This document shows, in pieces, positions 4,159-31,322 of a stretch of DNA of 31,322 nt (position 1 is its first letter; the number at the start of each line of letters is the position of its first letter). Position numbers and translations under genes: made by a program. The DNA comes from a virus. Lineage: Duplodnaviria; Heunggongvirae; Uroviricota; Caudoviricetes. The notes under the pieces are model-generated. The model did not search any database. It saw nothing but the letters and a program-made list of their open reading frames with translations, and was not told the origin of the DNA. Location: IMG/VR virus record IMGVR_UViG_647533158_000003. One strand, written 5' to 3'.

Positions 4159-6183
4159 GTGATTGATATGCTGGAACCTAGCCAACACCACGCCGTCAAT
4201 GCCTGGCGGCGTGAAACCTTTGCGCCTGGCAGCCCGTCAGATGCGACGATCACAGAACGCCGCCTGTGGGCTGTTAACCCAGAGGATTACGAATGGCGTT
4301 CCCAGTACCTGCATGAGATACCCGACTGGTTAGCCGGGTATTTTGGCAATCGTTACGAAAGACTGTTTGCTGGTCGTGACGGGCGTTGCCGTGCCAATAC
4401 ATTCCTGCGCCAGACTATCGGTGGGAGTGTATTGCCACGTCTGCGTAAGGTGGCCGCACGTTACACGCTGGCCGCTGATGCACTTGATCTTCCCTTTGGT
4501 AAGTCGCTGGAGCGACTGCCGTCACTTGACCGTCCCGACCTTAAAAAACTGGCTGGACAGATTTCTGGCTGGATCTCCCAGTCATTGTATGACTTCACCG
4601 ATCAGTTTGTTGGCAGCACCGAAGATGCCGCAGAGTTGCGCCGCCGTACGCTGGAGTCTTACCGCCATCTGTGCGCCTGTTCCCTGATGCTAAATAACCA
4701 GCCGCCTTATTGGGCTGAACATGAAGCCAATGGCGGCCAGCTGGAAACACGCAAGGCTGAATCCGGGATTCTTCGCATGATGGCGCTGGAATGGTGGGTG
4801 CTGCGTCTGAAGCGTGCGCGTGATGTGCAGCGTGAACATATGGCTATAGCCGTGGGGCAGGTTCAGAAAGCCGCCACTGCGTATGTATCCCGCAAAACCC
4901 TGGGTGAATGGGTTGACCAGAAAAAGCGGAATCTGGAGTTCTTTAAAAAGTTTGATCTGCTGAATGATGAGGGGCTGCGCATTTCACTGGACAGTATGGT
5001 GCATCGCAGCGTTGCAAATCCGGCGATCCGTCGCTGTGAGCTAATGGTAAGAATGAGAGGATTTGAAGATATGGCCAATGAAGAAGGGCTGGCCGGTGAG
5101 TTTTACACCATCACCGCGCCATCACGCTTTCATGCGGTACACAGTAAAGGTGGTTTTGTTTCGCAATGGGATGGATGTACACCGCAGGATACCCAGCGTT
5201 ATTTATGTGGTGTATGGGCGAAAGCCCGCGCAGCGATCTCCCGTGCCGGTATTCATGTTTTTGGTTTTCGCGTGGTTGAGCCTCACCATGACGGGACACC
5301 GCATTGGCATATGTTGCTGTTTATGCGCCCGCACGATGTGGACACCGTGCGCGATATCCTTTGCTATCACGCCAGAATTACCGACTCTGAAGAACTGAAA
5401 ACAGAAAAGGCGCTTAAGGCACGTTTTCATGTTGAGGCTATCGATCCCGCCAAAGGTTCGGCAACGGGTTACATCGCCAAGTACATTTCCAAAAACATTG
5501 ATGGATTTGCACTGGATGGTGAACAGGACGACGAAACCGGGGAGAACATGCGCGATATGGCCAAATCCGTTTCTGCCTGGGCTTCACGCTGGCGTATCCG
5601 CCAGTTTCAACAGATTGGCGGTGCGCCGGTGACTGTCTGGCGTGAGCTGCGCCGGTTGCGTGATCAGGTGCTGACCGATCGCAAAATGGATGCAGTGCTG
5701 GCCGCTGCTGATGTTGGAGACTGGGCAGCGTATACCCAGGCGCAGGGTGGCGCACTGGTTGCCCGTCGTGATCTGGTTGTTCGTCTGGCCTATGAAATCA
5801 CAGAACAGGGTAACGAGTACGCGGAGGACGTGCAGCGCGTTCAGGGTGTCTATTCTCCCTTAGTTCCAGATTCAGAGGTTTGTACACGTCTGGTGAAGTG
5901 GCAGAAGGTGGCGAAGTTGGCCGAAGCGTCAGCGGAGGCTGGTTTTTCTGGCGGCAGCGCCGCCCCTTGGAGTTCTGTCAATAACTGTACGGAGGGTGGA
6001 ACCCGCAGACGGTTAAAACTGGAATTGCGCAGCCGGGGTTTTGATGGTTCTGACGAAGAAATAGCCATTCTCATGCGGGGTAGTGGTTTGAGATTTGGCC
6101 AGGTGGCATTGATTTACCGTAATGGCCGGTTGCAAGAGACACGAAGCGAGCCAATGCACGAGCTGTGGCCGGGGTGGTTGTAG
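4159..6183 (+). CDS. A: Replication initiation endonuclease, P2 gpA / 186 A family (rolling-circle initiator)
   Basis: 674 aa. Contains the HUH-like motif PHWHMLLF and the tyrosine motif GYIAKYISKN typical of P2 gpA-family initiators. Start is GTG at 4159 or ATG at 4165. Confidence 0.93.
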   Translation: MIDMLEPSQHHAVNAWRRETFAPGSPSDATITERRLWAVNPEDYEWRSQYLHEIPDWLAGYFGNRYERLFAGRDGRCRANTFLRQTIGGSVLPRLRKVAARYTLAADALDLPFGKSLERLPSLDRPDLKKLAGQISGWISQSLYDFTDQFVGSTEDAAELRRRTLESYRHLCACSLMLNNQPPYWAEHEANGGQLETRKAESGILRMMALEWWVLRLKRARDVQREHMAIAVGQVQKAATAYVSRKTLGEWVDQKKRNLEFFKKFDLLNDEGLRISLDSMVHRSVANPAIRRCELMVRMRGFEDMANEEGLAGEFYTITAPSRFHAVHSKGGFVSQWDGCTPQDTQRYLCGVWAKARAAISRAGIHVFGFRVVEPHHDGTPHWHMLLFMRPHDVDTVRDILCYHARITDSEELKTEKALKARFHVEAIDPAKGSATGYIAKYISKNIDGFALDGEQDDETGENMRDMAKSVSAWASRWRIRQFQQIGGAPVTVWRELRRLRDQVLTDRKMDAVLAAADVGDWAAYTQAQGGALVARRDLVVRLAYEITEQGNEYAEDVQRVQGVYSPLVPDSEVCTRLVKWQKVAKLAEASAEAGFSGGSAAPWSSVNNCTEGGTRRRLKLELRSRGFDGSDEEIAILMRGSGLRFGQVALIYRNGRLQETRSEPMHELWPGWL

Positions 6184-6606: not shown

Positions 6607-6650
6607 CCCTCACTTTATTTTGATAAGAGTGAGGGGGGATATGATTTTTT
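6607..6650. terminator. Candidate bidirectional terminator hairpin (CCCTCACT ... AGTGAGGG) with a downstream T-run
   Basis: 8-bp perfect stem at 6607..6614 and 6628..6635, followed by ATTTTTT at 6644..6650. It sits between convergent genes 6303..6485 (plus) and 6657..7694 (minus). Confidence 0.4.
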
Positions 6651-6656
6651 ACGTTC

Positions 6657-7694
6657 TTAAACTTCTACTTCATTTTTAGAGTATATTTCCCCATCTTCTT
6701 TACGTATGCAATCACCAATGATGACTTTAAAATCTAATGATTTAATCGTATCAATAACATGATTGAGATAAATGCTATCAATTGTAGCAGGGCATAAACT
6801 TTTTAACTCATGGCCAAGTGGTGTTAGAATTAAAACCCTTAGTTTAAGTTCTTTCTTTGGATCGTCATGTTTAATCTGCATTACTTTATCATTATATATA
6901 TGATAATAAAAATAGGTTTCTTTACTAAGAGACTTGAAAGTTGAAGCTAATCCCATTGACTCAACTCCAGCAATGATGCCCAATGATTGCATCTCAGATA
7001 AAAAATTATAGTTTAGCTCATTATCTAAGTATTCGTTGCTGAAGTTCGAACCAACTTTCTCCCCCTTGATAATCCTATCAAGAAAGAGAAAAGAGAACAG
7101 TTTTTGTATTTTATTTGCTTCTTTTTGTGTCAGATTTTTGATGAAATCAACAGTTCTTAATGAATACGAACCTGGGCTTTTTAATTCACCTGCAAGTATT
7201 CTTCCCCATAAATCCTGTAACTTCTCTGAACTACTTGTTGCAGCACTATCTCTCCACCTTAGCAACCAATCATTTTCTATATTTTCGGCAGTAGGCTCAG
7301 ACTGATCAATTGAAAGTATTTCTTCGGCAACAAATAATGACTTGGCGATATTTATTTCTTTCTGGACTTCATTTGCAATAAGTTGAGTGCTTACTGCATT
7401 TTTTAAATTATCGAAATTTATGTAAGGCTCCATTGAACCTGAATTATCATACTCTTGTTTACTTTCTAATGAAATCAGTTTGGGGTTGTTTAGATCATTT
7501 AACGAAACGATTGCTTTTCCACTTTTTATGTTCTCAACATCCATCTCTGTTTGAGCCAAAACTAACATTTTTTTCCTTTCCATTTCTAAACTGGCAACTC
7601 CCTCCCTACGCATTTGCCAGGGCTTACATAAAGCGCCAATACCTTTTTCTGCTGTGGTTTCCCACAGTTTAGTTACAAGCTTTGAACCAAACAT
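6657..7694 (-). CDS. Orphan AT-rich accessory protein (345 aa) in the P2 A-to-Q accessory hotspot; candidate anti-phage defense or superinfection-exclusion gene of unknown family
   Basis: Clean 345-aa ORF with an ATG start and an AGGAG RBS. Composition is visibly much more AT-rich than the flanking phage genes. It occupies the slot where P2 carries old/tin. No catalytic motif recognised by eye. Confidence 0.75.
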   Translation of the reverse strand: MFGSKLVTKLWETTAEKGIGALCKPWQMRREGVASLEMERKKMLVLAQTEMDVENIKSGKAIVSLNDLNNPKLISLESKQEYDNSGSMEPYINFDNLKNAVSTQLIANEVQKEINIAKSLFVAEEILSIDQSEPTAENIENDWLLRWRDSAATSSSEKLQDLWGRILAGELKSPGSYSLRTVDFIKNLTQKEANKIQKLFSFLFLDRIIKGEKVGSNFSNEYLDNELNYNFLSEMQSLGIIAGVESMGLASTFKSLSKETYFYYHIYNDKVMQIKHDDPKKELKLRVLILTPLGHELKSLCPATIDSIYLNHVIDTIKSLDFKVIIGDCIRKEDGEIYSKNEVEV

Positions 7695-7697
7695 TCT

Positions 7698-7709
7698 AGG
7701 AGATCTCCT
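7698..7709. promoter_or_regulatory. Perfect 12-bp palindrome AGGAGATCTCCT overlapping the RBS of the 345-aa gene
   Basis: The sequence is its own reverse complement and contains the Shine-Dalgarno AGGAG of the gene starting at 7694. Possible operator or RBS-sequestering hairpin. Confidence 0.3.
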
Positions 7710-7844
7710 GCACCAATTTTAGGTAATAATATAATGCAAAAAATATAACGCACTGATTTTATAATGGAAAGATATCAGAGATCACTGGCATGAGTCTAGA
7801 CAGAGCAATTTGGGCATAAATGATGACTCAAACGGGAGATATTC

Positions 7845-8114
7845 TCACGCTACAGTTGTGGCTTTCAGTAAATCCAGTGCCATCTGTTTTTGAGACGGTG
7901 ACATGTTGTTAAGTAGGGCTTGAACAATCACATCACCCGTTTTCGCACTGGGGCTGAGAGTGTGGGAGAACGTCAGATTCATCACAAACGTATGGCCACA
8001 CTCAACATCTGAACAGGCGCAGTAAATATCCGCAATCTGCCGGTGCTTCCGGTTTGTTTTACGAATAACAGCCTTTGAGCCGCATTCCGGGCATTCGATT
8101 TTCAGAACTCGCAT
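7845..8114 (-). CDS. ogr: Ogr/Delta-family zinc-finger late-gene transcription activator
   Basis: CPECGSKAVIRKTNRKHRQIADIYCACSDVECGHTF matches the C-x2-C ... C-x4-C Ogr/Delta zinc-finger pattern (compare P2 Ogr CPLC...YHQCQNVNCSATF as recalled). I take the start at the internal Met MRVLKIECPECG; the track ORF extends to 8168. Confidence 0.75.
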   Translation of the reverse strand: MRVLKIECPECGSKAVIRKTNRKHRQIADIYCACSDVECGHTFVMNLTFSHTLSPSAKTGDVIVQALLNNMSPSQKQMALDLLKATTVA

Positions 8115-8164
8115 ATTCCATGCTCCAGCTGTTAAATGATGCCTGGATTTTAGCCTTTTTCGCC

Positions 8165-9226
8165 TCATGCCGCATCCTTATCCGTTGATTCTGTGTAACT
8201 TAAATCAAAGTTAAGGCGCAGTCTTTCCGGTATTTCGGGATCGTTGTTAACAGCGGTCATAAACCTGCGCTGAATGGGCGCTATCTCGCTTTTCTTGTAA
8301 ATCCTTTCCGCCTTTTCAACATCCCCCAGACCGGCAGTGTTCTGCGGGACAATTCCTGCCAGTCCTGCCGGAAAGCGGTGCGCGTTGAGAATGTCCTGCG
8401 CACTGATGTTTTTGATGTTGGCAAATTCATCTTTTGCGGAGATATCCCCCATTTCAATGAACTTGATCGCATCCCCATCCCCGCCAGGAATGTTCACCAG
8501 AATAGTGGAGAAGTTACCGATACCTTTGCTGTCACGCAGTTGCTGTTCAATCTCTTCTTCCATTTCATCCGTCATACTGGGATCACGCGTGTAGAGAATG
8601 CCGCCAGTATGAGCGCCGTTGTGGTAGTAGCGGCGGCGAAAAATTACGGCTTCGCTGTTAAGCAATGCCGAGTGTACGCCGCCGATATAGTCGGGCAGTC
8701 CGTAAATATGCTGTTGCGGGTCGTACATCTTGATAAAAATGATATCTTCCTGTGGCCATACCTGCGGTTCGCCGTCCTGCAATACCACATAATCGCCGGG
8801 CTGGTCTGTGGCGTTGTCCCTGACTTTACGGCGGCGAATATACAAGCCGGGTAAAGGTTCCAGGGCAATCACATCCCCCCATCCGTTGCGGATTTTGCCA
8901 ATCGCAATATCCCCGAAGGTTGTATAGTCAAACGCTGCGGCTTCCAGCTGGTCGTAAGTCAGGCCACCGCCCAGATAATCAGACACAATCATATTTTTCC
9001 GGGCGTGGATGATGCCGCCATGCTGACCATTCAGATTGATGAGCTGTGCCAGTGCCAGCCGGTCAATCGGCTGGGTAAAGTGATCGGCGGCATTGTCGTA
9101 CCAGATGTCGCGGTAATCCGTACCGGTGGTCAGCACGGGTTCCGGTTTGCCGAATGTAATGATGCTCATTTTTTTGGACTTATCGCCGCGCGGGTTGCGC
9201 TTAACGAAGCGGTTTTTTTTACTCAT
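8165..9226 (-). CDS. Q: Portal protein (P2 gpQ family)
   Basis: 353-aa ORF immediately downstream of, and overlapping, the terminase gene on the same strand. Size and sequence are consistent with P2 gpQ portal. Confidence 0.9.
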   Translation of the reverse strand: MSKKNRFVKRNPRGDKSKKMSIITFGKPEPVLTTGTDYRDIWYDNAADHFTQPIDRLALAQLINLNGQHGGIIHARKNMIVSDYLGGGLTYDQLEAAAFDYTTFGDIAIGKIRNGWGDVIALEPLPGLYIRRRKVRDNATDQPGDYVVLQDGEPQVWPQEDIIFIKMYDPQQHIYGLPDYIGGVHSALLNSEAVIFRRRYYHNGAHTGGILYTRDPSMTDEMEEEIEQQLRDSKGIGNFSTILVNIPGGDGDAIKFIEMGDISAKDEFANIKNISAQDILNAHRFPAGLAGIVPQNTAGLGDVEKAERIYKKSEIAPIQRRFMTAVNNDPEIPERLRLNFDLSYTESTDKDAA

Positions 9227-10998
9227 GCAGCCTCTTTCCTTACACCCCAGCGGGATTTCGGTTTGTTTTCGTAGTTGAGTGGTTCGTTATGCAGGGCGTG
9301 GGTAATTGCCCAGAACGCCTCCGCGTGGCCAGTGTCCTGGCTGCGGTCAGCGACAAATGTCATGGCGTTACCGCTTTGCGTGGTGGTGCGGCGTACAGCC
9401 ATAAAGCTGGCCGGGATCTCTTTCAGGTTCTTGTCCCATTCAATACGCTGACTTTCCACCACGTCCGCCGCTTTCAGTACCAGCTGATTTTTCGTGTTCA
9501 TGTCGTAACGAATGGCGACGGCCACGCGCATGGCAAAATGCTGGATGTTGTCAAAAACACCCTGGCCAATACCGGTAACGTCCACTCCCAAATAGGTGAA
9601 GTTGTATTTTTTAAACAGGAGTTCGATCTGCCTGGCCTGATAGCGGAAGTTCATGCCCTTCCAGTTAATAACCTTCAGAACGCGGAATTTCTCTGCGGCA
9701 TACATCGGCGGGGCAATAATCACAAAACACGACAAATCGCCGCTGCGTGCCGGGTCAAAGCCTCCCCATACTGGCCTGTCACCAAATGGCCGCGCAGCGT
9801 CCGGGTTGTGATCCTGCCAGGTGTCCACTTCCACGCCACAGGCTTCCAGATCTGAAAAACTGAATACGGAATCCTTGCTGTCCACGAACACGCACATATA
9901 GAGCATGTTGAAGGTGGCCGTGTTGTAGCGGTTGCGCAGCTTCTCGATGTTGGCCAGGTTGAAGCCACCTGCAATGGCATCTTCCATCGTGATGACATAG
10001 CGCCACTGCCCATCCGGGCAAAGCCGTCCGCCGTTGCGCATTTCATCAAAGGAGGGGAACTGGGCGGCCGCGCGTTTTTTGCTGCCCTGTTTCCATTCCT
10101 CACCCGTCCAGAACGGGTAAGCCTGGTGCGTTTTGGCCGATGGCGTTGAAAAGTAGGTGGTACGCCATTTGTCATGGGTGGCCATTGCGCTGGCCACTTC
10201 GTTAAGCCTGGCGAAGTTAGGCACCCAGAAATATTCGTCACAGTACAGGTGACCACTGTAAGACTGTGCCGTGTTTTTGTTGGTTGAGAGAAAACGCAGT
10301 TCAGCGCCGTTGCTGAGGCGGATCGGGTTGCCGGTCAGCGTGATGCCAAAATACTGTTCTGCAATGTTGACGATGTAAGACCGGAAGTATTCCGCCTGGA
10401 CTTTGGAGGCAGACAGGAAGATTTGCGGATCGCCTGTCATGACCGCGTTTTCAAAGGCTTCAAATGCAAAGTACCAGGTAGCACCGATCTGGCGGCTTTT
10501 AAGGATGTTCCTGACCTGCTGGCCGATGTTTCTGCGCAGGTGTTTCTGGTATTCAAAAAGATGTTCTTCCGCCCAGATGTCAAAATCCGCCTGGGTCAGA
10601 GAGGAAATATCGTTTTTCCTGTTTTTGCGTTTGGGGCGCGGTTCATCGCTGTTGCTATCCCGCGCAGCTGCCTGACCGTTACTCTGGCCGCTGGCCATTT
10701 TTTCTTTATGCTTATTGCTTTGAGCACGCAGCTTTGTGGCATGGGCAATCAGCATGTCCATTTCTTTCAGGTCGAGATCGGTTTTATTATCGCGGCTGGC
10801 CAGCAACTGGTAGCGGCGTTCAATTGCCTCCTCTGTACTTTCAAAGCTGAGTAAATCCGCCCAGCTGTATTTTTCAGCCCAGTAGTAAACGATCCGCGCA
10901 TTCGGCAGATTTAATTCTGATGCAATTTCTTTTGGCGTATAGCGGCGCAAATAAAGTGCGCGGACAACGCCTTTTAGTTCTTCTGAGTATTTAGCCAT
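9223..10998 (-). CDS. P: Terminase large (ATPase) subunit (P2 gpP family)
   Basis: 591-aa ORF divergent from the scaffold gene; the divergent P/O arrangement is a P2 hallmark. Confidence 0.92.
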   Translation of the reverse strand: MAKYSEELKGVVRALYLRRYTPKEIASELNLPNARIVYYWAEKYSWADLLSFESTEEAIERRYQLLASRDNKTDLDLKEMDMLIAHATKLRAQSNKHKEKMASGQSNGQAAARDSNSDEPRPKRKNRKNDISSLTQADFDIWAEEHLFEYQKHLRRNIGQQVRNILKSRQIGATWYFAFEAFENAVMTGDPQIFLSASKVQAEYFRSYIVNIAEQYFGITLTGNPIRLSNGAELRFLSTNKNTAQSYSGHLYCDEYFWVPNFARLNEVASAMATHDKWRTTYFSTPSAKTHQAYPFWTGEEWKQGSKKRAAAQFPSFDEMRNGGRLCPDGQWRYVITMEDAIAGGFNLANIEKLRNRYNTATFNMLYMCVFVDSKDSVFSFSDLEACGVEVDTWQDHNPDAARPFGDRPVWGGFDPARSGDLSCFVIIAPPMYAAEKFRVLKVINWKGMNFRYQARQIELLFKKYNFTYLGVDVTGIGQGVFDNIQHFAMRVAVAIRYDMNTKNQLVLKAADVVESQRIEWDKNLKEIPASFMAVRRTTTQSGNAMTFVADRSQDTGHAEAFWAITHALHNEPLNYENKPKSRWGVRKEAA

Positions 10999-25590: not shown

Positions 25591-26107
25591 TGGTGAAGCC
25601 ATACCGCTGAAGAATATGCGTGTGACGGTCTCGCAGCAGTTTCAGGATAAAGACCAGTCCGGGCAGACCAGCGCCACGACCAAATCAGAGCAGGGCGCAA
25701 AGGGAAAAGAGCTGCGTATCAGTGGCGAAATACCATTTAAAAAACCGGAGATCCTGAAGCGTATTTTTGAGCTGGCCAGCGCCACCGATACCGGAGGCAA
25801 TCGCCAGAAATACCGTGTTGCCCACGAGGTGGCCAGAGCCGTTAATTTTCGTGAGGCAACGTTCAGCGGAACGCTGGATGCCCCACAGCAGGACGGGAAA
25901 ATGGCCTGGTTGGTGACATTCACGCTGGCAGAACATATCAGCGTGCAGGAAAAGCGGGAGGCCAGGGCAACCGGCAAAACGACAGCGAAAAAACAGACGG
26001 CGGGCAGCACAGGGCAATCCGGTGGGCAGTCTGCCGGAGAAGATGAAGAAAAACTGACGTGGTTTGAAAAGAAAGTGCTGAAACCCGTCAATGATGTGTT
26101 GGGTTAA
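25562..26107 (+). CDS. Hypothetical tail-associated protein
   Basis: 181-aa ORF coupled to the flanking genes, with Lys/Gln/Gly-rich low-complexity segments. No family recognised. Confidence 0.5.
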   Translation: MTSIPTLALNGEAIPLKNMRVTVSQQFQDKDQSGQTSATTKSEQGAKGKELRISGEIPFKKPEILKRIFELASATDTGGNRQKYRVAHEVARAVNFREATFSGTLDAPQQDGKMAWLVTFTLAEHISVQEKREARATGKTTAKKQTAGSTGQSGGQSAGEDEEKLTWFEKKVLKPVNDVLG

Positions 26108-27810
26108 TGATGAAACCAGTAAAACGCCTTTACCTTTCAACGGATGAAGTTCACCTAGCCGATGCCAGCCTGGTGCTGGAGCTGAACAGTTGCGGCCGGG
26201 GATTTATCACGGCACAGACAACCACGGATTACACTGGAAAACTGGTGCGGCTGGATGTGGGGTACAGCGATCTGCTTTTGCGCTGGTTTACCGGCTATGT
26301 GGAACGCTCACAACCCGCAGAAAATGGCTTTCAGCGTCTGTTTGTGCGCGAACTGGTCGGCGTATTTGAAAGAATATGGCCATGTTCATTTCAGCACCCT
26401 ACCTTGCGGAAGGTGGCCAGTTGGCTGGAGGAAAACAGCGGGATCACCATCAGCGTACCTGATGCCCCATACAGTGACACGCCGATCCCACATTTCACCC
26501 ATAACGGTACCGGGTACCAGCTGCTGAATAATCTGGGCAGGGCATTCAGTATCCCGGATTACATTTGGTATCAGATGCCGGATGGTTCGCTGTACGCTGG
26601 CGGCGCAGAAAAGGCGCTGTTTGCCGGTCGTCCGGTCGATATTCCGGCAGAGTTCAGCCAGGGTGCTGCTGGCGGTAATTCCATGACATTGCCGGTTATC
26701 CAGAGTTTGCGACCGGGTGCGGAACTGAACGGGGAGCGTGTGACCAAAGTCCATCTGACCAATGACACGATGGCTGTCACATGGACACCCAGGAACCGCG
26801 CCACGGGTAAGCCATTGCAGAAAACACCGGCACAACGCCAGGTTGAAAGTCATTACCCGGAACTGGCCTCCGGGCTTCATTTGCCGAAAATGGCCAGAGT
26901 GGTATCACACAGCGAGGCGGTCACCAGCGGTAATTTTGCCGATCCGTTCCGGCCAAGGTATGCCGTTGACGTGCAGCTGCTTGATGCAGACGGGAACCCG
27001 GACAATCAGACTCCGGTTTATACCGCAGTACCGCTGCCGGTACCGATGGCCGGCCATGACTCCGGTATGTTCCAGTTTCCGCCAGAAGGGACGCTGGTTG
27101 AAGTCGCGTTTACCGCAGGTCGACCGGATAAGCCGTTTATCAGGCAGACGTTGCCGGATGGTACCAGCCTGCCGGATGTTAAACCCGGTGAGCAGCTGCA
27201 ACAGCAGCGGGCTGAAGTGTCGCAGCGAGTTACCCAGGCTGGTGACTGGGTGCGGCAGACCGATCAGACCATCAGTGAAACATCGATGGCGCGGACGGTG
27301 AAAGCAGATACAGAACAGCGCGAGCTAGTCAGCCGTGAAACCACGGTTAAAGCCACGGATAAAACTACTGTGGTGGGTACCGCTACCCTGATGGCCGGAG
27401 CCATTCAGCAGGTCAGTGCCGGGGATTTTAGCCAGGCCGTGAAAGGCAACAGGCTGGCCAGCATTGAAGGGAATGACGAAACCGATATAACCGGGAAACA
27501 GTCCACGAAAGTGGCCGGTGCTGTGACCGTTGACGTGGGGGAAAGCCTGACAGAAAAGATTGCCGCGCTGCGCAAATCCGTGGCCGCTGGCGGTCAGCAG
27601 GTTATGGGGGCAACTGTGCATATTGGCAGTGAGAGTACCAACGCCCTGACCATGATGCTGGACACCATTGATTTGCTGGCAGAACTGGCGCGGCAGTGCG
27701 CGAGCCATTCACACCCCAGTGTCGGTACGCCAACCAATGCCGGAGCGTTCACCCAGACAGCGACAAAGGCCGGACAGACCCGGAGCAAGTACCAGAGCAT
27801 CATTGCCTGA
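26107..27810 (+). CDS. Putative baseplate hub / central spike protein (gpD-like N-terminal region with a gpV/gp5-like OB-fold segment)
   Basis: 567 aa. The segment RYAVDVQLLDADGNPDNQTPVYTAVPLPVPMAGHDSGMFQFPPEGTLVEVAFTAGRPDKPFI resembles the OB-fold signature of gpV/VgrG spike proteins. Last gene before the late terminator. Confidence 0.55.
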   Translation: MMKPVKRLYLSTDEVHLADASLVLELNSCGRGFITAQTTTDYTGKLVRLDVGYSDLLLRWFTGYVERSQPAENGFQRLFVRELVGVFERIWPCSFQHPTLRKVASWLEENSGITISVPDAPYSDTPIPHFTHNGTGYQLLNNLGRAFSIPDYIWYQMPDGSLYAGGAEKALFAGRPVDIPAEFSQGAAGGNSMTLPVIQSLRPGAELNGERVTKVHLTNDTMAVTWTPRNRATGKPLQKTPAQRQVESHYPELASGLHLPKMARVVSHSEAVTSGNFADPFRPRYAVDVQLLDADGNPDNQTPVYTAVPLPVPMAGHDSGMFQFPPEGTLVEVAFTAGRPDKPFIRQTLPDGTSLPDVKPGEQLQQQRAEVSQRVTQAGDWVRQTDQTISETSMARTVKADTEQRELVSRETTVKATDKTTVVGTATLMAGAIQQVSAGDFSQAVKGNRLASIEGNDETDITGKQSTKVAGAVTVDVGESLTEKIAALRKSVAAGGQQVMGATVHIGSESTNALTMMLDTIDLLAELARQCASHSHPSVGTPTNAGAFTQTATKAGQTRSKYQSIIA

Positions 27811-27820
27811 CCATCCCATC

Positions 27821-27847
27821 AGCCCGCATCTAAAGCGGGCTTTTTTG
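27821..27847 (+). terminator. Rho-independent terminator ending the late/tail operon
   Basis: Stem AGCCCGC (27821..27827), loop ATCTAAA, stem GCGGGCT (27835..27841), followed by TTTTT. Lies 11 nt after the hub gene stop. Confidence 0.7.
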
Positions 27848-28399
27848 TACCCCTCGCCTGACGCCCTGCGGCGCAATCTGAGCGCCAAAATCCACACACT
27901 GACACCACGTAACACCTAAAAAGGATCTGTGCCGTCACGTTGCGCTGACGTAGCCACACGCAGACAAAATAAATCTTTCGCAGACAAAAACGGCACTACA
28001 CCGCACCCGCCTGCGGTTTTTGGATCGTGAAAATTTTTCAGTTTTATTTTTCTTCAAACCAGATCTCCAGACCGCACCAGCATTGATGGCTTTGCAGAAA
28101 ACCAAAACTGAAATGATTGAAAATAATTTCACTGTTTTTCAGTAAATAGGATTTATTATTCTATTATATTTTACCGTAACTATCAGATATATAATGATAA
28201 AATTAACTTTGGTTATAATGAAAAGATTGGCAAAAGGGATGTAGTAGTAGACTAAGTTATAGAAATTGTATGATTTTCTTCAAGTTACGATCTGTTGAAA
28301 ACATTATTGGGTTGAAAAAAGTGAAATAGTTATTATGATTTAGTATTCGTGTTTTGATAGTCATTAGATAAGCTTAGAATTGTTATAATATAACATTCA

Positions 28400-28993
28400 A
28401 TGGATAAAATTATGAGCATACTTACTCAATATGGAAAAGAAATTTTTGCTTTTATCGTTCCTGTCTTCACCTTAATTATAAATAAATATTTTAAAAATAG
28501 TGCCAAGATTAGCTACGGGGAATTGCATCAATTTACTTATCTGATTAACCAACCTTTAACGAATCAAGAAGGTGAAGTGGTGAAATCGTCGCAAACCGTA
28601 CATACGCAATCATATGTTTTTAAGAATGAAGGTAGAGAAGCAGCAACGAATATGGAGGTTATTTTTAACTATGCACCGATGTATCTTAATATTTGGCCAT
28701 CGCGCCTCTATACGGTAAAAAATGATTCAGAACAAAGGCATATTATGGTATTTGATTATTTAGCACCGAAAGAGGTTATACGGTGTGAAGTGATAGCTAT
28801 CAATACACAGGTGCCAATGCTTTTATCTGTAAGGTGCAAAGAAGGTCTTGCTCAGAACATAGTGCTATCGCCACAAAAAGTTTTCCATCCTGCTTTTATA
28901 AACTGTGTTCGTTTCTTGATATTCCTGGGGTCGGTAAGTCTGGTATACATTCTTGTAGTTTTACTTCAGTGGTTACTCTTAAAAACAGGTTAG
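28400..28993 (+). CDS. Hypothetical two-TM membrane protein (197 aa), AT-rich cargo gene
   Basis: Predicted TM helices near the N-terminus (IFAFIVPVFTLIINKYF) and C-terminus (FLIFLGSVSLVYILVVLLQWLLL). Composition is strongly AT-rich. An extended -10 element TGTTATAAT lies at 28381..28389. Confidence 0.55.
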   Translation: MDKIMSILTQYGKEIFAFIVPVFTLIINKYFKNSAKISYGELHQFTYLINQPLTNQEGEVVKSSQTVHTQSYVFKNEGREAATNMEVIFNYAPMYLNIWPSRLYTVKNDSEQRHIMVFDYLAPKEVIRCEVIAINTQVPMLLSVRCKEGLAQNIVLSPQKVFHPAFINCVRFLIFLGSVSLVYILVVLLQWLLLKTG

Positions 28994-29070
28994 AAAGTTA
29001 CCTGTGCAAAAACGCTTTTAGCTTGTGTGATGTTATTGTAAATATTTTCGTGAAATTAACCATTTAAAGA

Positions 29071-29092
29071 AAGCCACTATTTTGAGTGGCTT
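29071..29092. terminator. Candidate bidirectional terminator hairpin between convergent cargo genes
   Basis: 8-bp stem AAGCCACT (29071..29078) and AGTGGCTT (29085..29092) with loop ATTTTG. Lies between the 3' ends of 28400..28993 (plus) and 29133..30557 (minus). Confidence 0.35.
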
Positions 29093-29132
29093 CATTAGGT
29101 TTCTTTAATGGTAGAATTGCGAGTAATGTTTA

Positions 29133-30557
29133 TTAACTCACTAAGTTCACATAGCTGATTGCTATACGTAAAAAACTGTCGAGTGTATCGACGCTTTCTT
29201 TTATTTCTTTGTTGACACTAATCAGTTTTTCCAATCGTTCATCACTAAAATGACTTGTTATATGAATTAAATCTTCTAATATCGAGACTAAATCATTAAC
29301 AATACTAAGCTCTTTTGAAATTTCATTTTTAATAAAGTAATATTCTTCATTACCGAGTTTATCAATTAATTTATGCTGTAACTTATCCCACTTATCCAAT
29401 AGTCCATATGTTTCTGATGTTATTTTTTTCGTATTTACCAGAATAGTAGAACCTTCACTCACTTCTTTAGCATAAAGTCTATTGTGCTTTAACCAGCGAA
29501 TATTTTCATTTCTTTGTTTCAAGATGCTTTTATTTATCTTTTCGAGTTCAACATGTTTGTTCCATTTTTTTATAATATCATTTATCTTATTGTCTGTAAT
29601 TTCATACTCATTAAGAACGTTGCTGTTAAATGATAATTCTTCTACTTCTTTTAGGGAAGACTCACTAATTTCAATATCTTTAAGGTGGTTTTTTGCCTCA
29701 TGTAGAAAAGTTAATTGGTTAATTAATTGGAAGTTTTGGATGTTGGCTTCGTTGCATATTTCTGTTTTTAAAGACTCAAGAGCACCGTGTGTTTTTCCAG
29801 CGTGTGCAAACCACCAATCCTCTTTGTTATCATCACAAATAAAAATTACATTTTTTATTTTCTCTGATTTGGCTTTTTCAATGATTTCTCTCCATAAATA
29901 CAAATCACCGAATTTGTCCTGAAATTCAATGTTTGTGAAGAATGATTTACTTTTCTTTGGCGCGTCTTTGAATCCTGGTGGTATCTTATTTTCATATCTT
30001 TTTTCACCAAGTGCATTTATTTTATCTATTTGTTCCTGAGTAGGGACTTCACCAACTCTATTAGAGGTAATTATGTCGATCCTGTCACGAATAATGTCAT
30101 GCTTCGATATTTTCTTTTTGTTTTCAATTCTTGGAGTTATCTTTTTATTAATATACTCCTCAATTGGTTTTTTAATTTTACTTTGCAGATCAGAAAGTTC
30201 TTTGTTTAAAGCGCTATAAAGATGTTTTTTTACACTACCAGAAGATAATATTTCTTTCGTATAAATGCTTTCTAATTCATCTTTAATTTTATCTAGGCTT
30301 TTAATACTATCTTCAATTACAGAACGTCTGTTTCTCTGATATTCAAATCCAACTTGGAATGGTATCCAAGTTCTGGGAGCAATAGCATCCATTACTTTAA
30401 GTATATCTTCGCGGGTATGATCTTCACATCTATATAAGTTAAGAAGGCAATTTGTATCAAAAACAAAAAGAGTGGAATCATCCAACCATATATTTGCTAC
30501 TGATTCAGTAGGAGTACTATAGAAACCTAAAAAGGTTGATTTCAAGGGGACCTCCAA
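29133..30557 (-). CDS. PIN-like domain protein (474 aa), candidate nuclease-type defense or abortive-infection effector; start probably TTG (30555..30557, or 30543..30545 after a GGAGG RBS)
   Basis: N-terminal strand motif LFVFDTNCLLNLY is a typical PIN beta-1 signature with the first catalytic Asp; a later acidic cluster VIFICDDNKEDWW follows. The C-terminal half is long, Lys/Glu-rich and helical. The gene is AT-rich and sits in the cargo island. Confidence 0.7.
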   Translation of the reverse strand: MEVPLKSTFLGFYSTPTESVANIWLDDSTLFVFDTNCLLNLYRCEDHTREDILKVMDAIAPRTWIPFQVGFEYQRNRRSVIEDSIKSLDKIKDELESIYTKEILSSGSVKKHLYSALNKELSDLQSKIKKPIEEYINKKITPRIENKKKISKHDIIRDRIDIITSNRVGEVPTQEQIDKINALGEKRYENKIPPGFKDAPKKSKSFFTNIEFQDKFGDLYLWREIIEKAKSEKIKNVIFICDDNKEDWWFAHAGKTHGALESLKTEICNEANIQNFQLINQLTFLHEAKNHLKDIEISESSLKEVEELSFNSNVLNEYEITDNKINDIIKKWNKHVELEKINKSILKQRNENIRWLKHNRLYAKEVSEGSTILVNTKKITSETYGLLDKWDKLQHKLIDKLGNEEYYFIKNEISKELSIVNDLVSILEDLIHITSHFSDERLEKLISVNKEIKESVDTLDSFLRIAISYVNLVS

Positions 30558-30646
30558 TGTTTTTAACTACTTCATAACTAGCATATTTTATTCAAGTGAT
30601 CCGGTGTTCGCAACTCCTTTGGATAATGGTGTCTAAATATTAATGA

Positions 30647-30661
30647 GACATTTTTGCGACA
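30647..30661. repeat. Putative attR core (GACATTTTTGCGACA)
   Basis: Exact copy of 309..323, lying between the last cargo gene and the mntR upstream region. Confidence 0.4.
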
Positions 30662-30854: not shown

Positions 30855-31322
30855 ATGAGTCGTCGCGCAGGTACGCCAACAGCAAAAAAAGTGACGCAGT
30901 TAGTGAACGTGGAAGAGCACGTTGAAGGGTTCCGCCAGGTCAGAGAGGCGCATCGGCGCGAGCTTATTGATGATTACGTTGAGCTGATTTCTGACTTGAT
31001 CAGGGAAGTGGGGGAAGCTCGTCAGGTGGACATGGCTGCTCGTCTGGGAGTTTCGCAACCGACGGTGGCTAAAATGCTTAAGCGGCTGGCAACCATGGGG
31101 CTGATTGAAATGATCCCCTGGCGTGGCGTGTTTTTAACGGCAGAAGGAGAGAAGCTGGCGCAGGAAAGCCGCGAGCGACATCAGATAGTCGAAAATTTCT
31201 TGTTGGTGTTGGGCGTCAGTCCGGAAATCGCCCGTCGCGACGCGGAAGGCATGGAGCACCATGTTAGTGAAGAGACGCTCGACGCTTTTCGTTTGTTTAC
31301 CCAGAAACACGGTGCCAAATGA
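30855..31322 (+). CDS. mntR: Manganese-responsive transcriptional regulator MntR (DtxR family), host gene
   Basis: 155-aa ORF. The sequence [86 protein letters not shown]... matches E. coli MntR as recalled. Has a GAGGAAG RBS and a DtxR-type HTH. Confidence 0.88.

Follow-up and report, generated by a model that had tools for sequence, protein, structure and literature searches.

The DNA considered here (IMG/VR virus record IMGVR_UViG_647533158_000003; 31,322 nucleotides (nt), called the window, to whose coordinates all positions refer) is a complete prophage of ~30 kb in an Escherichia coli chromosome. Its gene at 28412..28993 appears, from the arrangement of its signals, to be an autonomous moron, that is, a self-contained promoter–gene–terminator cassette, with a candidate promoter, in an attachment site (att)-proximal hotspot of an HP1/P2-like temperate phage. 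The product would be a 193-residue inner-membrane protein in which an Ig-like β-sandwich is clamped by N- and C-terminal transmembrane (TM) helices. The analysis supports the reality of the gene, a corrected start codon, the architecture of the protein, its carriage by phages, its modular mobility and its lack of an obligate partner; an autonomous anti-phage function is, in our judgement, an even bet.

The gene, its signals and its product

The initial annotation, made from the letters of the window alone, had placed here an open reading frame (ORF) of 197 amino acids (aa) at 28400..28993 (+). This ORF is present, and its start codon alone needs correcting: the true start is ATG 28412 rather than ATG 28400, which gives 193 aa and a coding sequence, stop codon included, of 28412..28993 (+). 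Homologues in all 50 clusters described below begin with M(N/S)(I/L)L.QYGKE and nearly all are 193–194 aa long, and the RefSeq annotation WP_000025842.1 is the 193-aa form, starting at 28412. When the upstream regions of homologues are aligned, a Shine–Dalgarno-like motif, GTGGAxAA, is found to be conserved 8–12 nt 5′ of the start; its version in the window is ATGGATAA, with the GGA at 28402..28404 (+). ATG 28400 is a by-product of this ribosome-binding site, because it is located inside the conserved motif, where it overlaps the GGA. A start at 28400 is rejected by the homologue N-termini and the conserved motif together.

The gene has a candidate promoter in an extended –10 element, TGTTATAAT, at 28381..28389 (+), which contains the sole TGNTATAAT in the window. 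It had been recognised in the initial annotation, where its position only ~10 nt from the annotated ATG left the start and the promoter in doubt. Moving the start to ATG 28412 settles this puzzle: the element now ends 22 nt ahead of the start codon and the leader is ~16 nt long and carries the GGA. Most homologue loci also have –10-like elements 20–50 nt 5′ of their starts. The ORF of the preceding gene, which encodes the tail spike and is the last tail gene, ends at 27810 and is followed at 27821..27841 (+) by an intrinsic terminator (a stem of seven pairs, six of them GC, and then TTTTTTG), which insulates the cargo island from late transcription. On the other side of the cassette, a hairpin at 29071..29092, AAGCCACT-ATTTTG-AGTGGCTT with flanks TTAAAGAAA/TTTCTTTAA, serves as a bidirectional intrinsic terminator common to the membrane-protein gene and the convergent PIN_8 gene. 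It had been noticed at first reading, and both its sequence, in which the flanks are complementary A- and T-rich runs as in bidirectional terminators, and the fold of the intergenic RNA (z=−4.4) bear it out. The same AAGCCACT...AGTGGCTT hairpin lies 3′ of the gene in locus L032 and in the genome RIT714, which lacks PIN_8; thus the terminator travels with the membrane-protein cassette. Taken together, the two terminators, the extended –10 and the Shine–Dalgarno sequence would make a cassette insulated from late transcription, and the gene is probably expressed in the lysogen. These signals, with the promoter as predicted from sequence, are those expected of a moron, as are a guanine plus cytosine (GC) content of 28–37% against ~55% for the phage and presence or absence among closely related prophages.

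The gene belongs to a large family. A word-indexed search gave 50 homologue clusters in Enterobacterales at 36–99% identity, from Escherichia, Citrobacter, Yersinia, Edwardsiella, Rahnella, Pantoea, Pectobacterium, Erwinia, Enterobacter and other genera. An exhaustive profile search gave 765 clusters (at 50% identity) with E≤1e-3, nearly all of them of ~190 aa and 89 of them with E≤1e-30; a search with a narrower family alignment returned only three genome loci. Among 5426 complete E. coli genomes, this allele is found in two and the family in nine. No family had been recognised at the outset, and that still holds: the protein and 53 diverse family members have no significant match in Pfam-A, NCBIfam, PADLOC-DB v2 or PHROGs v4 (the best sub-threshold profile match is phrog_9607, E=0.1), the family profile has no hit among PDB sequences at E≤10, and a fold search of BFVD returns uncharacterised proteins alone, with TM-scores of at most 0.41. 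Nor did the profile searches find a housekeeping membrane protein, a clear match to which the initial annotation had named as the result that would tell against its proposal. A literature search found no papers on PF18476, vB_YenM_324 or B7NAB6. Rarity in complete E. coli genomes, AT-rich composition and the want of a recognised family are what would be seen if this were not a functional gene, being either an ORF arisen by chance in AT-rich DNA or a pseudogene in decay; against this stand full-length homologues in the hundreds, which keep a constant length, share conserved motifs and align without indels, a confident structure prediction, and a Shine–Dalgarno sequence and terminator conserved on either side of the gene. 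The conservation data effectively refute that explanation, whose probability we regard as negligible: the gene is real and conserved.

The structure predicted by AlphaFold2 from a 27-sequence alignment (predicted local distance difference test, pLDDT, 88.7) consists of a helix at residues 3–27, ten strands at residues 33–150 and a helix at residues 160–192, and hydropathy agrees with the two terminal helices of the 193-aa form. Thus the arrangement that had been read from the translation, with one TM helix near each terminus and a soluble middle domain, is upheld. The N-terminal TM helix (28418..28492, +) has conserved P17, T20 and N24. The β-sandwich (28508..28861, +), an Ig-like domain predicted to be cytoplasmic, carries the family-wide motif N72-x-G74...A78...F85-N86...N93-x-W95-P96; the residues N72, G74 and P135 are invariant in the family. 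In the C-terminal TM helix (28889..28987, +), which is also marked by invariant columns, Y179 and Q186 are conserved and G173 is invariant throughout the family, even in members at ~25% identity. The conservation of both TM helices equals that of the sandwich, which suggests that they do more than anchor the protein. Lysine and arginine are more frequent at the flanks of the sandwich than at the termini in 124 of 127 family members (mean 4.9 versus 1.7), and the N-terminal tail is acidic. From this charge bias and the positive-inside rule, we infer that the sandwich is cytoplasmic and that both short conserved tails are periplasmic (N-out/C-out).

The cargo island and the movement of the cassette

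The carrier is an HP1/P2-like (Peduoviridae) prophage between E. coli mntS and mntR. Its genes run from the integrase (297–1337, –), beside mntS, through regulation and replication, a P2-type head and an HP1-type tail to an AT-rich island; the last tail gene (26107–27810) encodes the 567-aa spike protein and host mntR begins at 30855. The placing of the gene in an AT-rich prophage cargo island, already proposed in the initial annotation, is confirmed by the GC content of the island (28–37% over 28001–30500, against 52–59% in the neighbouring tail genes) and by its position in an att-proximal hotspot. The longest word common to both prophage ends is the 12-nt GACATTTTTGCG, a candidate attR core at 30647..30658, of which a second copy beside int, at 309–320, overlaps the 3′ end of that gene. 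Similarity to prophages with other cargo restarts at 30647/30732, and this together with GACATTTTTGCG at 30647 places the island (28000–30650) inside the prophage.

Between the spike gene and attR lies a hotspot whose cargo varies. Unrelated cargo, such as a serine acetyltransferase and unknown proteins, occupies it in other prophages of the lineage, and alleles of the membrane protein are 53–70% identical between prophages whose spike proteins are 87–94% identical. The hotspot is split by a conserved non-coding element of ~250 nt (27904..28150), recognised by similarity among E. coli genomes, with a second hairpin or terminator at 28000–28017 and two copies of the direct repeat CGCAGACAAAA; cargo lies on either side of it. 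The gene stands after the element in the window, in L024, in L032 and in RIT714, and before it in loci of the L027 type. The element is matched at 82–88% in most of the 477 E. coli genomes hit and occurs also in L022, L023, L027, L028 and RIT714; Rfam has no match in it or in the rest of the island.

Homologues are found in a range of phage settings. In the Yersinia phage vB_YenM_324 (Peduoviridae, Tresduoquattuorvirus) the homologue is gp38, at the right genome end and 72% identical, and in Pantoea dispersa pESL4.2, a circular phage genome (phage-plasmid), it lies between the spike gene and int; in both, this is the slot that the gene has in the window. Eight IMG/VR contigs carry a homologue, mostly at the end of prophages of ~31–32 kb, and another E. 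coli allele, of 64% identity, directly follows the spike gene. In seven complete E. coli genomes, an allele occupies the left prophage end, between mntS and int, with direct repeats of ~95 nt on its two sides. The gene is thus a recurrent cargo of this phage lineage. It is also found alone, with no prophage, at sites used by the lineage or adjacent to them, namely mug–rpoD (RIT714) and ybjL (six Edwardsiella tarda genomes); its location in Enterobacter, again alone, is beside a mobile-element hotspot near proBA. Its positions include both flanks of the att core and, within the hotspot, two sub-slots.

Some of these loci show further features. The direct repeats around the left-end allele, 80% identical, lie at 5702–5795 and 6613–6696 in E. 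coli Br_190_kylling (L037, NZ_CP182387.1) and resemble the int 3′ end and att region; they suggest tandem-prophage recombination or att-mediated movement of the cassette. Island leftovers occur in two genomes at mug–rpoD, near the junction of the Yersinia enterocolitica prophage L016 with rpoD. RIT714 (Enterobacteriaceae, L005) has the 250-nt element and an intact membrane gene (85% identical) without PIN_8, and Citrobacter amalonaticus (L035, 7682–7816) has PIN_8 and a membrane gene that an insertion sequence (IS) has cut to a 45-aa fragment. In Enterobacter (L010–L015), the homologue has a constant divergent neighbour of 380 aa (8350–9492, –), for which there is no Pfam or PADLOC match; the hotspot on the other side holds, depending on the strain, DRT UG17 with SLATT, AbiJ-like genes, P4-like elements or prophages. 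A Pectobacterium integrative element carries its homologue 3.4 kb from Gabija (GajA, E=1.6e-234), and in some E. coli prophages a gene for a retron-type reverse transcriptase (RT) is located between the membrane gene and PIN_8. Beside PIN_8 in L030 and L031 this RT (7615–8379; PADLOC RT_VI, E=1e-17) has 254 aa and may be truncated; in L027 and L028 it is reduced to a 100-aa remnant (7615–7917). Two homologues lie near an orphan hcp, and a role as a type VI secretion system (T6SS) immunity gene was considered and rejected, since small candidate immunity ORFs already lie next to the Tlde1 effectors there and no T6SS genes occur in the prophage contexts.

Other features of the prophage ends and of its middle can be recorded here. 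There are no tRNA genes in the window. An 11-nt word, GCTATATTATA, occurs in palindrome-like sequence near both junctions (~201 and ~30741) and may be host regulatory DNA of the mntS–mntR intergenic region. A second AT-rich island (30–33% GC) lies at 6657–7694 (–), between the replication endonuclease gene and ogr, in the position of the classical P2 tin/old hotspot; its product has 345 aa, belongs to DUF2806 (PF10987, E=2e-25) and is not matched in PADLOC.

The convergent PIN_8 gene

The PIN-like gene that the initial annotation had seen facing the membrane-protein gene is a PIN_8 nuclease-like gene (29133..30545, –; 470 aa; PF18476, E=3e-59). Its start is TTG 30545, which follows GGAGG, and not TTG 30557. 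In the AlphaFold2 model, a PIN domain that contains a long inserted helical segment is joined through a disordered linker (residues 305–346) to a bundle of long helices at the C-terminus. Identity between alleles is 71–90% over the N-terminal 300 aa and 19–25% over the C-terminal ~170 aa, a pattern typical of a diversifying specificity domain.

It had been suggested that the membrane protein might be the partner of this neighbouring effector. Such a functional pair could be envisaged in two ways: the membrane protein might tether the nuclease, sense for it or gate it at the inner membrane, or it might be a membrane effector triggered by PIN_8. When co-occurrence across genomes was checked, as the initial annotation had advised, the pair was found to recur, but to be facultative. 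The convergent arrangement exists in four divergent versions (the window; L024; L032–34; L027/29/30), with membrane proteins 53–70% and PIN_8 proteins 54–65% identical overall, all from E. coli and Citrobacter prophages of one lineage, and its IS-truncated remnant persists in Citrobacter amalonaticus. These recurrences and the shared terminator argue for a pair, as does the result of looking up five close PIN_8 alleles, each of which has the gene, or what is left of it, close by in at least some genomes. Variability within the island is highest in the membrane gene and the abutting hypervariable C-terminal helical domain of PIN_8, and cutting injected phage DNA with a nuclease bound to the membrane is an established strategy (PMC13190303).

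Against a pair is the number of contexts in which one gene occurs without the other. Of 19 distinct membrane-gene contexts with enough flanking sequence, PIN_8 is present in four and absent from 15, and the bona fide phage vB_YenM_324 has the membrane gene only. Conversely, the membrane gene is missing from 98 of 99 PIN_8 loci collected by independent seeding from viral and metagenome contigs (27–100% identity; 91 of them extend 1.5 kb or more downstream), among them loci with alleles 64–69% identical to that of the window; the sole positive is the window's own allele. One identical PIN_8 allele has the membrane gene in L027 and lacks it in L028 and L031, and in the L027 type the two genes lie in different sub-slots with ~1.9 kb between them that includes the RT gene or its remnant. 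They are convergent, separated by the bidirectional terminator and served by separate promoters, hence not an operon, and the conserved co-occurrence expected of a two-gene system was not seen across genomes. A co-variation of membrane-protein and PIN_8 alleles was also looked for; no correlation was found over the six pairwise comparisons, which were all that were available. The partnership is therefore not borne out: since the pairing is facultative, we conclude that the membrane gene and PIN_8 are two independent modules stacked in one hotspot, and consider a functional pair improbable. A narrower version, in which the protein of the E. coli/Citrobacter lineage would additionally recruit the hypervariable C-terminal helical domain of PIN_8 to the site of phage entry, is more improbable still.

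Possible functions and related systems

The explanation that we prefer is that the protein would act alone, without PIN_8, and would protect the lysogen from other phages at a membrane-associated step. The favoured version is exclusion at genome entry, in which the sandwich and the TM pair would bind the entry apparatus, be it a host inner-membrane channel or the incoming tape-measure or ejection proteins. Alternatively, the protein might be a sensor-effector that permeabilises the membrane upon binding a phage protein, and so causes abortive infection. Whereas an anti-phage function of one kind or another has an even chance, entry exclusion itself is a tentative proposal, favoured somewhat over the abortive mechanism, which we consider unlikely. 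It is equally tentative to regard the family as a new and widespread class of single-gene anti-phage proteins, in which a cytoplasmic sandwich would recognise an incoming phage component and the protein's own TM pair would block entry or open the membrane with no need of a partner.

Evidence for defence includes the neighbours of the homologues, which comprise GajA and the retron-type RT and, in an adjacent hotspot, DRT/SLATT and AbiJ-like genes. Further evidence comes from DefensePredictor (2026), in whose Table S10 the 193-aa E. coli protein WP_016262940.1 is entered with cluster representative WP_071290238.1, and this cluster carries the label 'Predicted novel defense gene', with a mean log-odds of 5.87 at a cutoff of 4 (PMC13092281). 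WP_071290238.1 is the homologue annotated at 6001–6582 of L037, in E. coli Br_190_kylling; it has 193 aa and is 71% identical to the protein of the window. It is thus of the same family, although the listing is a machine-learning prediction and concerns a different allele, from a left prophage end. WP_000025842 was not found among those entries of the DefensePredictor tables that were available to us. A PIN_8 protein, WP_114499597.1, is listed there as a predicted defence gene (PMC13092281). Two likenesses to other DefensePredictor systems were rejected: the validated DS-3 ('PIN8') is not detectably related to the PIN_8 of the window (hhalign probability 0.4%), and DS-13 and DS-25 ('TMO1' and 'TMO2') are helical TM proteins of different sequence and not relatives of the membrane protein. 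The features used by DefensePredictor include neighbourhood and GC, and 45% of its tested predictions were validated (PMC13092281).

Several points weigh against the explanation that we prefer. Because neighbourhood and GC are among the features of the model, the DefensePredictor listing is not independent of the cargo-island context, and we take it as supporting evidence rather than independent proof. The association with defence genes is guilt by association over ~20 contexts rather than a statistical enrichment, and several homologues have ordinary chromosomal neighbourhoods (in Edwardsiella, in a distant member beside uvrA, and in Citrobacter near a capsule locus). TGNTATAAT is expected by chance ~0.9 times in 31 kb, so that the motif by itself is not significant. 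The topology depends solely on the positive-inside rule, and a cytoplasmic sandwich is less typical of the classical superinfection-exclusion (Sie) proteins.

Some of the same observations would suit a gene unrelated to defence, whether for lysogenic conversion, through modulation of the envelope or of a transporter, or for the phage life cycle, through control of the carrier's own lysis or lysogeny. Some homologues are fixed, within a species, at one chromosomal site without obvious defence neighbours, as in the six Edwardsiella tarda genomes and in more than 270 contigs that carry one Enterobacter allele; the family is very large, at 765 clusters, with distant members beside housekeeping genes, and Ig-like sandwiches are generic binding modules. 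Countering this are the hypervariable hotspot, the presence or absence of the gene among near-identical prophages and a fast turnover of alleles typical of conflict genes; the gene also lies adjacent to Gabija, the retron-type RT and PIN_8, it carries the DefensePredictor prediction, and the phage has a complete lysis cassette elsewhere. We judge a role of this kind possible, and less probable than an autonomous anti-phage function. The initial annotation had argued that small membrane proteins in prophage cargo islands often act as abortive-infection effectors, superinfection-exclusion factors or partners of a neighbouring effector; the cargo and defence context stands, through the neighbours and the DefensePredictor prediction, and the partnership with the PIN protein falls.

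If the anti-phage function is true, the gene would be a compact, 0.6-kb, single-gene membrane module for defence or exclusion, with an architecture not seen in characterised Sie or abortive-infection proteins, and a name and a function would be provided for a large family without a Pfam entry, whose carriers are genomic islands and Peduoviridae prophages throughout Enterobacterales and whose more distant relatives reach into metagenomes. If it is not confirmed, this would be one more uncharacterised prophage moron; at present, it is a reasonable, not an exceptional, candidate among hundreds of predicted novel defence genes. The case also illustrates the movement of a cassette in an att-proximal hotspot, to either side of the att core, into two sub-slots, and left behind at vacated att sites.

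The classical Sie proteins T4 Imm and Sp, P22 SieA, HK97 gp15 and lactococcal Sie2009 are small inner-membrane proteins, each the product of a single gene, that act alone and block genome entry. The protein of the window is likewise small, phage-encoded, the product of a single gene and, by prediction, located in the inner membrane; unlike them, it is a β-sandwich between two terminal TM helices, with a soluble domain predicted to be cytoplasmic where theirs is periplasmic, and it has no sequence or profile similarity to them (Pfam, PHROGs and PADLOC were negative). The Cap15 (S-2TM-β) effectors of CBASS reportedly have both TM helices at the N-terminus and are encoded in an operon with a cyclase. 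They share with our protein two TM helices and a compact cytoplasmic β domain (predicted here), an arrangement that could couple ligand binding to membrane disruption; here, in contrast, the TM helices flank the domain, no homology was detected, and the gene has no conserved partner, no CD-NTase, cyclase or other such gene having been found in the ~20 contexts examined.

The nuclease SNIPE is bound to the membrane and cleaves phage DNA as it is injected (PMC13190303). If the membrane protein and PIN_8 were a pair, the likeness would be one of concept only, in that a nuclease would be positioned close to the entry site, at the inner membrane. In SNIPE one polypeptide combines a TM segment of its own with a nuclease domain of an unrelated kind, whereas PIN_8 lacks a TM segment and is mostly found where the membrane protein is absent. 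A further comparison is with the P2-like phages, which carry hotspots of anti-phage systems (Rousset et al. 2022, PMC9122126). The slot described here, beside attP and int after the last tail gene, is not the P2 replication-gene or portal hotspot, and the protein is not homologous to Old, Tin or Fun, nor to any of the systems that the study tested. What it shares with those morons (old, tin, fun; PMC9122126) is an apparently autonomous cassette of deviant base composition in a hypervariable Peduoviridae slot, where related prophages carry different cargo and where known or predicted defence genes are among the neighbours.

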